From the NCBI RefSeq assembly GCF_964194025.1, contig NC_134471.1, positions 31,496,001-31,560,000 on the forward strand: a DNA stretch of 64,000 nucleotides, written 5' to 3'. Below are positions 20,870 to 25,600 of the stretch, piece after piece. Source of the DNA: Convolutriloba macropyga (taxonomy: Eukaryota). A model generated the notes under the pieces. The model was not told the DNA's origin. It did not search any database and worked only from the letters and a program-made list of their open reading frames with translations. Both the position numbers and the translations under genes were made by a program. Position 1 is the stretch's first letter. Every line of letters begins with the position of its first letter.

Positions 20870-21180
20870 AATTTTTCCAAATGGGATATTTTGTGTGCTC
20901 ATTTGTACATAATCGACAGAATCGATTATCCTCATGTTGGGATAAATGTGGATGTTTTGTCACTTCTAATTTTGTTTTCATTTTGTTGCATAAATTAGTA
21001 GGATGTGATCAGGACGGGGAGACAAGATCGCAGACAGATGGGGCTTTCAGGGTTAGGGTATCTTTTAAAAAGTGCTTTTCTGCAAGGAACATATACATAT
21101 TGAGTATTTTCCTTGGGGAATTGTTTATGTAGTTTTTTTTACGACCACGGTTTTGCGGGAATTTATTGGGCAAATAATGT
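20870..21180 (-). pseudogene. RING-like Zn-finger accessory ORF, paralog 3 (decayed)
   Basis: ICPINSRKTVVVKK/LHKQFPKENTQYVYVPCRKALFKRYPNPESPIC ... FCRLC; frameshift in an A-run. Confidence 0.55.
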
Positions 21181-21258
21181 CCTTAATGGGATAGAGCCAA
21201 CAAAAACGGTACAATAAGGATTGTGAGAGACCAATCGAGTGACTGTTTTTTATTTTAC

Positions 21259-21459
21259 TTAGACAAAAACAGGAAAAAATTTGAGAAACTGGAGAATGAT
21301 GATGTTAATGAGGAACGATATGGCAAGCAAATTAATTAGGATTAGGATAAATATTGTTGTTGGTAGGTCTAGATTGGTCATTTTCGGTATCTGGAAAGAA
21401 TTTGGCCAGTTGCAGAAAGGAGATAATGATTGATAAAAAGTGATATTGTCAAAGCGCAT
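21259..21459 (-). CDS. Small ORF with a strongly hydrophobic, TM-like segment
   Basis: ...TTIFILILINLLAISFLINIIILQFL...; AT-rich DNA can give such runs by chance. Confidence 0.35.
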   Translation of the reverse strand: MRFDNITFYQSLSPFCNWPNSFQIPKMTNLDLPTTIFILILINLLAISFLINIIILQFLKFFPVFV

Positions 21460-21651
21460 AGCAAAACAAATAAAAGAATAAACAATATTATTGGGTGCAT
21501 TTTATCAGACCAATGAATAGTGTAGATTTATAGTGAAGAAAGTGGCTTGTTCTTGGTAAAAACTCAGGTGAGTCAGGGAGATCGAGTGGATTAGCAGTAA
21601 AACAAACAGAAAGGGAATTAAAATTTGTTAAGTTTTCGGATGCATTTTAGC

Positions 21652-21990
21652 TTATACGAATGTTTTTTCGCAAAGGGGGCGCAATATGTAATCTTTTCGG
21701 CAAACTTTACAGAAGTTGAGGGGTTTCTGATCATTGTGATGAAACGTTTTTGCAACAGAATGTTGAAGCCTTGTTTGTTTGCAAACATCACATTGGAACC
21801 AGTTAAAGATTGAAAAGATAACATTAAGTTTAGAGCGTTTAGGGCAGAAGTCAAAACCCATATCTCTTATAACATTTTGATAACAGAGCAGACACATTAC
21901 GTGGGGTATTTTGTTAGGGAGGTTCTCGTGTAGTTTCTTGGAGACAATTGTGTCGCGTCTGCAGCATAGACAAATTAATGGGACCGGTTT
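21652..21990 (-). pseudogene. RING-like Zn-finger accessory ORF, paralog 2
   Basis: In-frame upstream extension of ORF 21652..21897: ICLCCRRDTIVSKKLHENLPNKIPHVMCLLCYQNVIRDMGFDFCPKR...FQCDVC...FCKVC...PLC. Confidence 0.6.
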
Positions 21991-22384
21991 GGATTCTTCA
22001 GTTTTGATTCCTTTGTCAACTTTATTCGTATTTGGGAGGGGATTTCGTTTAAACTATTTGAGGTATTGGTTGTTGAATATGTTGGGATTTGATTGTTTGA
22101 TTTATTACCAATGTACTTATTAACATCAAAAAGTTGAGAGGCATACTTATAACCACGACGAAAGCAGTTAAAAACAAAAATCAAGTATTGTTGCTGTAAA
22201 TAATGTGAAGGGTTTGTGAACTCAGTTTCGAATCGGAGGTTTTACCAAGGATGTTTTTGATCAATGGTTTGTTTAATTAAAGGTCATTTTGGGTTGGTAA
22301 AGGTCATACATTAACAACAATTTTATTTTCCAGGGGTGTAAATATATGAGATATCTGTGGCAAGTGAATAACTTTTTGATTTCT

Positions 22385-22570
22385 TGTTAGGAGTCACACT
22401 GGAAATAATAGCAATTACTAATAGTATAAATGGAAGTTACACAAATGGGACAGTTAGGTTTGCTCCAATAATTAAATAACTCATTTCTACAGGGAATACA
22501 CGCGAAATGGGGATTTTTTAAATTGACGGAAAAAGCGATAACAAATAGGGCATTCGATTTTAGGAGTTGA
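22385..22570 (-). pseudogene. RING-like Zn-finger accessory ORF, paralog 1
   Basis: ECPICYRFFRQFKK/NPHFACIPCRNELFNYWSKPNCPIC...FQCDS*; one frameshift. Confidence 0.6.
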
Positions 22571-22615
22571 GTCAGTTTGTAGTTGCTGAGAAAAAAATTT
22601 TCAAAATGTATCCCA

Positions 22616-25600
22616 TTATACTGACAAATCAGAGATATTTGGGTATGAGACTTCTAGTCCATGGTGTTCAAGTTCATTGGGGATAGTTACATTTAAATCT
22701 GCAATAGCAAAAAAAAATTCCAGTGTCGATCGTCTGGATAAATGTAATAATGATTTATGGTACCTGTGCTTAAGAACATATAAGTTATTTTTATACATGC
22801 TTTATAGTGTTTGTAACAAAAGGTAAACCATCTTTCTACTTTAAAAATTTTTAATTTTTCCTTACGAACGAACAAAATCATTTTGTTTTTGACAATTTGG
22901 TAGAAAACGAGGGAACAAGAACAAACTGATCGGGATACAAATGAATTAACAGGAAAGGAAAAAAAGAAGGGATAAAAAATGAGCAGGGAGAAAACTGTTT
23001 AATGAAGAGCGCCCAAGTGGGCAGTGCTCTTCGATATCAATGAGGGCTAGGAAGAATTCCCAGTGCGTCATTCCAATGGTGATTCGTGTAGTACCCTTGC
23101 ATTCACGTTTGTAGTCTGTATAATGGATAATGATACAGGCTTCAATCTCTCCGGTGGGAGTTTCAGTGAACGACCTCCCGAGGGACTCTACTTTAACTAG
23201 GCGGTTACCAAAATTGAACAGCATTATAGAAGATCTAAATTAAAAGGGATTTTGGTGCCATTTAACGCTTGGGATATTTTTATAAAAAAATGTCCAATAT
23301 GGGGAAGATGGTGTTAAAGTAATAGTGCCATCAGTCCAAGTATTTAAATATTCAAAATGTATTATTAGTTGTGGGATTACTCTGTTACTTTTTGTCGTGA
23401 CAAATGGTTTTTCAAAAATTGAAATTGTACAAGGCAGTTTTGGTATGAGAATATCTTTGCTGTTTTTAATTATTAATTGTGTCCAACTCGTTTTGACAAG
23501 AATCAGTTTTTGGCAGATCAAAAGAAATATTGTGAGGAACACAGTTTGGATTTTCTAGAATAAAGATGAAGAATTTCGCAATGGATTGAGAGAGGGTTAC
23601 TACTGTTTAAACCAAAGGTTTCACTTTGTATCTCTTTGAGTGTTACTAGCATGGTGGGAACAAGAGTTGGGTACGCATCAAAAGATCGTTGAATTTCGTG
23701 CAATTCTACAAATTTATTGTCAACTGCAAATATAACAGTTTGGAATGCTGGTAATTGAGCAATGTAGATTGGATGTCGAACTTCAAATATCGAGTTCTTT
23801 TTGTTAGCTAGAAAAATGGTTAATTCGGCGAATTGAGGATGGATTATGAAGATAGTTTACAGTCTATAAATATTGTCATAGGTTTTTTCACGAAAGTCAT
23901 TTTATTTATAGCAGAGACATTGTAGTTGTTTGTTAGTTCATTGTTTTTCCTTTCAAAGCTATGTATTGACGTAAGCTTATTTGAAAAAAATTAATGATAT
24001 AAAATTGTCAATTTTGGCTAAAAGCAGGATTATTGACAACGATTGCTATTAATAGATAATCCATCAATCGAATTCGCTTTAGCAAGATTGGAGTAGGTGA
24101 AAATTCGGGTAATAAATAGATGGACACAATTAGGATTAAAAAGTTGAAACTGGATTATAAGAAATAAAAAAAAACCAAAAGATTCCGCAAATTTCCCTCA
24201 AGGTTGAACTTATAACAGAATTCAAAATCTAGTAAGATTTTTCGTCAGGTACTTGAAACAATTTTCTATCCGATTCCAATGTTTACAAATTAATTATGTC
24301 ATCAACCAGGTCCCTTAACAATAAGAAATAATAAAAATTTGAATGCGGTACGTCCAGATCAGTAATGTCACTAAAATAGAACGATGCAACTCTAAGAGTT
24401 ACATTACTTCCTAAGGTAGAAATACTTGATGATACCATTTGTCCGGTGTATTGTCCCAATCTAACGAATAAAGCGTTAGGCTGTTCAATGAATTTGGGCT
24501 GCCTAACATATCGTCCTTGAGGTGTATCTGAAAAAGATGTTAATTAATTGGTAGAGTCTAACACATATAACTTTCATCAATTTTTGGGACAAACCTCCCG
24601 AGGGACTCTACTTTAACTAGGCGGTTACCAAAATTGAACAGCATTATAGAAGATCTAAATTAAAAGGGATTTTGGTGCCATTTAACGCTTGGGATATATT
24701 TATAAAAAATGTCCAATATGGGGAAGATGGTGTTAAAGTAATAGTGCCATCAGTCCAATTATTTAAATATTCAAAATGTATTATTAGTTGTGGGATTACT
24801 CTGTTACTTTTTGTCGTGACAAATGGTTTTTCAAAAATTGAAATTGTACAAGGCAGTTTTGGTATGAGAATATCATTGCTGTTTTTAATTATTAATTGTG
24901 TCCAACTCGTTTTGACAAGAATCAGTTTTTGGCAGATCAAAAGAAATATTGTGAGGAACACAGTTTGGATTTTCTAGAATAAAGATGAAGAATTTCGCAA
25001 TGGATTGAGAGAGGGTTACTACTGTTTAAACCAAAGGTTTCACTTTGTATCTCTTTGAGTGTTACTAGCATGGTGGGAACAAGAGTTGGGTACGCATCAA
25101 AAGATCGTTGAATTTCGTGCAATTCTACAAATTTATTGTCAACTGCAAATATAACAGTTTGGAATGCTGGTAATTGAGCAATGTAGATTGGATGTCGAAC
25201 TTCAAATATCGAGTTCTTTTTGTTAGCTAGAAAAATGGTTAATTCGGCGAATTGAGGATGGATTATGAAGATAGTTTACAGTCTATAAATATTGTCATAG
25301 GTTTTTTTCACGAAAGTCATTTTATTTATAGCAGAGACATTGTATACTGCTAAAAGCTCAAAACTTTGATTTTCGATTCTGACCTGTAAGTTTCTATTAG
25401 TTAAGTGGATCACAATTGCTGGTCTAGTTCTTTAAGCAAACTAATAGGATCAAATTGTGCTAAATAAACAAAATAGTTCCAATACAACAATTGAGGGGTT
25501 TAAATGACACTATCGTTTTCCTGCGTGTCCCAAAGTTCGAACTTTATAACCATTTGAGGGAAAATGTCTCCGTGATTTTCTTCAAATGTTTTCTTTATTT

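Follow-up and report, generated by a model that had tools for sequence, protein, structure and literature searches.

The analysed stretch of Convolutriloba macropyga DNA, hereafter the window, was 64,000 nucleotides long (contig NC_134471.1, positions 31,496,001 to 31,560,000). A long terminal repeat (LTR) element was found on its minus strand, and the 3' accessory region of this element contained three small genes for Cys/His-rich proteins, named R1, R2 and R3 (Table 1). All three RING-like motif strings that the initial annotation had reported were recovered there in the minus-strand translation.

Table 1. Positions of the LTR element and its genes in the window
Feature	Window positions	Strand	Remarks
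Whole LTR element	17,769−39,933	minus	decayed Ty3/gypsy copy with chuvirus-type env, 22.2 kb
3' LTR	17,769−18,845	minus	91.9% identity with 5' LTR over 986 columns
Last accessory ORF before 3' LTR	19,096−20,345	minus	~420 aa frame in sister copy; broken in window
R3, double-module RING-like gene	20,856−21,250 (about)	minus	broken in window copy
R2, double-module RING-like gene	21,652−22,053	minus	open frame, 133 aa
Remains of small hydrophobic ORF between R1 and R2	22,061−22,250	minus	tblastn 22,171−22,061; left end measured, right end approximate
R1, double-module RING-like gene	22,248−22,616 (about)	minus	broken in window copy
Small accessory ORF array	22,622−26,322	minus	76−94 aa in sister copies, several of them paralogues; window copy with partial duplication
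env, chuvirus-type fusion glycoprotein (PF24664)	26,383−30,192	minus	E 2.5e-38 in sister copy; broken and partly duplicated in window
pol, protease−RT−RNase H−integrase	30,755−34,977	minus	Ty3/gypsy order; broken in window
gag	34,956−36,250	minus	PF03732, E 8e-5 in sister copy; broken in window
5' LTR	38,943−39,933	minus	followed inward by a primer-binding-site-like TGG stretch

The features that mark Ty3/gypsy elements with a gB-type env, namely LTRs, gag, the PR-RT-RH-IN series and an env placed after pol, were all present, and PF24664, to which the env was assigned, is the Pfam family of the Monjiviricetes fusion glycoprotein. The host element fits the envelope-carrying errantiviruses with a gB-type, chuvirus-like env described by Chary and Hayashi (PMC13524379). 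In the accessible part of that paper, those ancient errantiviruses share with it the gag-pol-env order, the gypsy domain order, the LTRs, the many near-identical copies and the chuvirus-like glycoprotein. In contrast to them, the element studied here was about 19 kb long and contained a dozen or more extra ORFs; RING, zinc, accessory and ubiquitin were not mentioned in the main text of PMC13524379, as far as it was accessible.

When R2 was searched against the 1.18-Gb genome, at least 150 matching places were found (642 candidates, of which 150 were scored). Two of the three sister copies examined at length had this length of about 19 kb and LTR pairs that were 99.9−100% identical, hence the element family multiplied recently. 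The window copy itself is old and broken. Behind env, the sister copies carried seven small ORFs, R1, the hydrophobic ORF, R2, R3 and the long last ORF, in this order. The three paralogues are indeed carried by the element. Four read runs gave a flat, high depth with no clear splice joints.

Several minor features of the element were recorded. The window copy was extended to 22.2 kb by internal tandem duplications at 23,173−26,322 (99% identical) and 27,474−30,315 (87% identical). The LTR termini (window 17,769 and 39,933) read TG...TA and not TG...CA; two sister copies had 4-bp target duplications, and the flanks of the window copy matched at three of four letters. Degenerate repeats of ~104 bp, longer in the sister copies, were found in the leader behind the 5' LTR (window 38,383−38,648), and two or three small ORFs, two of them alike, lay upstream of gag (window 36,380−37,536, minus strand) and occurred in the sister families too. 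Three near-identical matches, L016, L017 and L018, followed one another every 21.7 kb or so, one pair being 99.8% identical over 8.3 kb, which was due either to a tandem duplication or to an assembly effect.

It had been stated that the ORF track misses R1 and R3 because of frameshifts, and frame breaks were located in both genes. R1 contained at least three of them, near 22,600, 22,520 and 22,330, as well as stops and a short deletion in module 1; the breaks in R3 lay near 21,140 and 20,997, and its start codon was absent. Both genes were spread over three reading frames each, with stops or lost ligands. Of the 16 ligand positions, the window copies retained 11 in R1, 13 in R2 and 9 in R3 by our own count. 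A profile of 19 relatives matched five pieces of the window with E values from 1e-27 to 3.5e-4, all within R1−R3, while the next window match had an E value of 0.26 and the best of 15 shuffles reached 0.029. Further, the window contained two instances of the short ligand motif, and 100 shuffles contained none. The R1−R3 feature is real.

The natural sister copies provided the intact proteins, with 132 (R1), 125 (R2) and 130 aa (R3) counted from ATG; the identity to R3 was 39% for R1 and 30% for R2. The ligand spacing of module 1 was C-x2-C-x10-H-x8-H-x2-C-x2-C-x12-C-x2-C, as initially proposed, and it was found in open frames at 29 natural sister loci. A second Cys module had also been noticed, and it was present; the two CxxC pairs by which it had been described were only half of it, as the sister copies encoded a full eight-ligand C2H2C4 module. 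This module 2 followed after a linker of 14 residues and was built of C-x2-C, two His separated by three to four residues (R1−R3), C-x2-C, six or seven residues and C-x2-C.

A pattern search placed both modules within a single open frame at all 29 loci for R2 and at 26 of 29 for R3, the sister loci being the best R2 matches and their selection therefore biased toward open frames. R1, whose last spacer was seven residues, escaped this search. A later count gave full open frames for R1 at 21 and for R3 at 24 of 27 loci. In both modules, the eight Cys/His ligands formed four pairs. Each of the 16 ligand columns was kept in 16−19 of 19 aligned proteins with an overall identity to R1 of only 21−48%.

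The N-terminus was a Met-Gly start in all 23 R1 frames found and in all 27 R3 frames, while R2 had no Gly2. At five loci, such a start was present in 6 of 10 RING ORFs and in none of 46 neighbouring ORFs, these being related copies and not independent cases. Among the 15 family members listed, seven started with Met-Gly, and at least one paralogue did so in each of four element families. The Met-Gly start of many members is a possible myristoylation site. Additionally, a Trp close to the C-terminus was found in 8 of the 15 members listed and in the single-copy family.

To judge by codon substitutions, R1, R2 and R3 are all under purifying selection, with pairwise dN/dS values among the copies of 0.18, 0.16 and 0.21, respectively (from 27 loci after removal of two tandem duplicates; the pairs are not independent). 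The dN/dS of the window R2 against the copies was 0.32. Neutral cargo, that is, a captured sequence riding along as a functionless passenger, agrees with the decay of the window copy, but it is largely refuted by these ratios; as four element families and other data sets likewise showed conserved ligands, we consider it extremely unlikely.

Related element families in this genome carried their paralogues at an identical position, behind the small-ORF array and ahead of the last ORF, but differed in number: there was a single one in one family (seven loci, with a duplicated block at one of them), two in L048 and L040−L043, and three in L061. The RT−RNase H stretch of the sister families was 81−92% identical to that of the window's family, while their RING proteins shared about 27−54% with R1−R3 by tblastn, the R1 counterpart in L061 reaching 69%. 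The RING proteins were thus far more diverged, and the gene is old in the lineage, prone to tandem duplication and fast-evolving outside the ligands. In the paralogue tree, R1, R2 and R3 each grouped with their sister-family counterparts, R3 weakly (82/78), and the deeper order was unsettled; in the RT tree the window row crossed a frameshift and was unreliable. We propose that R1−R3 arose by tandem duplication of one ancestral gene within the element lineage.

Beyond the element, the three-paralogue profile matched 41 representatives in a set of 1.84 billion with E values up to 0.001, mostly two-module proteins of 124−203 aa or broken pieces of them. P0033 was discarded from these as a repeat artefact, and several others were frameshifted pieces. 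Ten clusters were inspected, and their names were all uninformative; word-based homologue searches returned unnamed ENA proteins only (6 for R3 and 30 for the alignment of the family). At E 1e-20 this genome gave no match to P0023, and for P0026 and P0016 it gave matches at 32−43% identity only; with no close match in the genome, all three probably come from other organisms. Searches of viral contigs gave no loci for P0026 or P0016, and metagenome contigs gave none for P0016. A separate metagenomic protein, P0044 (JGI/IMG, hypothetical), had 242 aa, began with a hydrophobic leader and contained two C2H2C4-like fingers whose histidines were far apart; it aligned with module 1 at an hhalign probability of 95.6% and exceeded the Pfam cut-off for zf-C3HC4_3. 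Its pattern implies that long-loop C2H2C4 RINGs occur outside this element.

The fold was assessed on models. The AlphaFold model of R1, built with 19 sequences, had a pLDDT of 84.9 (92−96 in module 1). VIA-align of this model against 48,161 chains gave Z values of 5.0−6.8 in the best 50 rows, covering residues 9−95, where a Z under 8 may reflect a common arrangement; by our own count, 39 of these 50 rows were titled RING, U-box or E2-E3 complex. Module 1 superposed on its best structural matches with an rmsd of about 2 Å over 50−57 residues, and the rmsd to RNF146 was 2.2 over 56 residues. RINGs also headed both the PDB and the BFVD lists of a Foldseek search with the R1 model, in which no match fell below E 0.001. 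The Foldseek top matches with tandem RINGs, RNF4 and Ring1B-Bmi1 fusions, had rmsd values of 11−12 Å and thus lend no support to a dimer-like geometry.

Module 2 of R3, folded alone with 8 sequences, reached a pLDDT of 84.9. Its best matches were RING/U-box structures with Z up to 4.0, tied with non-RING zinc fingers; the TM-scores to RNF12 and RNF165 were 0.53−0.55, and module 2 aligned with module 1 at hhalign probabilities of 71−81%. In searches of the Pfam RING families, R1−R3 scored 19−21 bits at best, under the cut-offs of 27−28, and zf-C3HC4_3 was matched by 7 of 19 members at E 0.05 or better. The best E value of a sequence search in the PDB was 0.24 with the three paralogues and 0.001 (TRIM32) with the 19 sequences. 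The RING-like fold assumed from the ligands was thus modestly supported by the model for module 1 and weakly for module 2, with no match individually significant. The scores were modest, but the structure lists were mutually consistent and fitted the ligand pattern, and the models support a cross-brace fold of the RING type for module 1.

LIM, PHD and RBR proteins were discarded as readings because their ligand order or their number of modules differs; the RBR series RING1-IBR-RING2 was absent, there being only two modules 14 residues apart. The spacing of ligands 3 and 4 had been called non-canonical; the ligand order C2H2C4 is a known cross-brace RING type, represented by Mdm2/Mdm4, in whose RING the ligands run C, C, H, H, C, C, C, C according to the accessible text of PMC6372010. 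Mdm2 RINGs ranked fourth in Foldseek and appeared in the sequence search at E 0.12−0.5. Unlike Mdm2/Mdm4, R1−R3 have tandem modules, and in module 1 the two histidines are separated by eight residues. Their identity as Mdm proteins was rejected, since the p53-binding and acidic regions were absent and the sequence similarity was not significant.

The initial annotation suggested that the proteins may be ubiquitin ligases and named the E2-binding surface as a point to check. In module 1, Ile, Val or Leu preceded ligand 2 in each of the 16 rows that had a letter there, a hydrophobic residue stood four helix positions past ligand 6 in 19 of 19 rows, and the loop-2 Pro was likewise present in 19 of 19. 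These three positions contact the E2 in RINGs, hence the hydrophobic contact surface was kept; Ile or Leu before ligand 2 was seen in just 9 of 19 rows of module 2. The linchpin position, directly after the last Cys, was basic in 3 of 19 rows of module 1, and a Lys was found there in 4 of 19 rows of module 2. In the accessible part of PMC12326332, Arg is given as the most effective linchpin residue, and active RINGs with other residues are described (Tyr in XIAP, His in Doa10).

The predicted complex of R1 with the host Ubc13 scored 0.40, against 0.00 for the best of three controls, with a partner pLDDT of 88 and at least 96% of contacts agreeing between runs. On this scale, scores of 0.60 or under were obtained by 5 of 78 solved complexes and by all four mismatches that passed, and RING-E2 pairs may pass the test from model memory; the prediction is therefore weak evidence for a binding of R1 to Ubc13. 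The host Ubc13/UBE2N gene (L064:1471−1932, minus strand) was intronless and closer to the human protein (290 bits) than to that of yeast (236 bits), which points to an animal host. A function as ubiquitin ligases is accordingly plausible: the E2-contact positions were kept and the complex was weakly supported, but the linchpin was mostly missing.

Where RING ligases act as dimers, the second RING contributes an aromatic tail to the grip on ubiquitin. The kept E2 contacts, the Met-Gly start and the Trp tail together suggest a single-chain two-RING ligase that would be anchored in the membrane in the case of R1 and R3. Each protein consists of two C2H2C4 modules with a 14-residue joint, both proposed to be cross-brace zinc modules. 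Module 1 would bind host E2~ubiquitin in the manner of RING E3s. Module 2 and, where present, the C-terminal Trp tail may replace the partner RING of a dimer and prime ubiquitin, a task otherwise done by the linchpin that is missing here, or may bind a substrate. No separate substrate-binding domain was present in the proteins of 124−170 aa, which comprised a short leader and the two modules. The Met-Gly start would probably serve as a myristate anchor on R1 and R3 and direct their action to membranes. As a net effect, a host factor restraining the element, or proteins where it buds, could be ubiquitinated. The action against host silencing that the initial annotation considered would be speculative. 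On balance, we consider it probable, by a small measure, that R1−R3 are element-encoded, partly membrane-tethered tandem-RING ubiquitin ligases. A wider proposal is doubtful: that an invertebrate lineage of 'complex' endogenous retroviruses has its own family of myristoylated single-chain RING pseudo-dimer E3s, tandem-expanded and diversified, which destroy host restriction or silencing factors like the accessory proteins of vertebrate viruses.

Other functions could be assigned to the same features. Arenavirus Z carries a myristoylated glycine and a central RING (PMC3509680, in its accessible part) and is like R1 and R3 in its small size, Met-Gly start, RING fold and origin from an enveloped virus. 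R1−R3 might accordingly be myristoylated RING adaptors without a ligase activity of their own, lining the membrane, linking capsid and env or binding host factors in assembly and budding, and the env of the element would suit such a role. The fold searches indeed returned Lassa Z (TM 0.71 normalised to the target length, rmsd 1.8, Z 5.2), which had an Atlas lead of 0.86, but zf-P11 was reached at E 0.068 only. Further, Z has one RING and late domains, whereas R1−R3 have two modules, and PPxY and P[T/S]AP (PTAP) motifs were absent from the 15 members scanned, with a single YPxxL-like match. Considering also that Gly2 was missing from R2 and from one family-B paralogue and that the E2-contact positions were retained, we regard this function, the main alternative, as unlikely.

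The retained E2 surface and the mostly lost linchpin would also be expected of decoys, in which module 1 holds a host E2~Ub or a RING partner without catalysing transfer and so dampens a ubiquitin- or SUMO-dependent defence. Inactive RING partners are known from MDM2/MDM4 (PMC12326332, as far as accessible). The same source, with its active RINGs that use other linchpin residues, speaks against this interpretation, for which three diverged paralogues are not obviously needed either; it seems quite improbable. Nucleic-acid or chromatin zinc fingers, serving for example in RNA export or transcription of the element, have a precedent in CERV of Cer1, an accessory Cys-rich RNA export protein (PMC10309623, accessible part). 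The basic module 2 of R3 and the ties of module 2 with non-RING fingers point the same way, but module 1 matched RINGs almost exclusively and the Met-Gly starts point toward membranes, and a role of this kind was judged very unlikely. The preferred reading of R1−R3 as ubiquitin ligases can be compared with the RING E3s of viruses (herpesvirus ICP0, baculovirus IE2/PE38/CG30, iridovirus and giant-virus proteins), which share the virus-borne RING fold and headed the BFVD list, with Nucleocytoviricota clusters heading the Atlas list at 0.87−0.90. Their matches were all weak (E above 0.01), they are mostly larger proteins of DNA viruses, and the two-module form was seen in none of them.

RING ligases of viruses and additional ORFs in LTR elements are both familiar. 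Descriptions of invertebrate gypsy elements are usually limited to gag, pol and at most env. The GDSL and DEDDy ORF3s of rotifer elements (PMC5408684) and CERV of Cer1 (PMC10309623) are likewise family-specific genes in gypsy-like elements, according to the accessible parts of these papers; CERV is a different Cys-loop protein, and the accessible texts mention neither RING nor zinc (PMC5408684) or do not mention RING (PMC12440569). The literature searched, largely that outside subscription journals and Repbase reports, contained no account of accessory RING genes in elements of the gypsy or errantivirus type. R1−R3 are therefore an apparently undescribed, selected family of tandem C2H2C4 RING-like accessory proteins in a giant envelope-carrying gypsy lineage.

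This recently multiplying lineage has a dozen or more selected accessory genes, including one to three tandem-RING genes whose family is covered by no Pfam model. If the proteins are ligases, they would offer a concrete and assayable handle on retroelement counter-defence, and their substrates would name host restriction factors. A natural single chain with two RINGs and no linchpin would also be of interest for the structural biology of ubiquitin.

The neighbouring accessory ORFs were investigated as well. Between env and R1, all four element families (L035, L048, L052, L061, L062) had four to seven ORFs of 74−105 aa. Several were mutually paralogous, and dN/dS was 0.06 and 0.17 for the two analysed. 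The small-array ORFs that were searched gave no Pfam or Atlas match, and the last accessory ORF before the 3' LTR gave no Pfam match. The hydrophobic ORF between R1 and R2 encoded 67 aa from ATG in the sister copies, with a hydropathy of 2.9 and a dN/dS of 0.61 at low synonymous divergence. A similar ORF was present in L061, and in some copies the hydrophobic ORF was joined in frame to R2 (L023; 218 aa frame).
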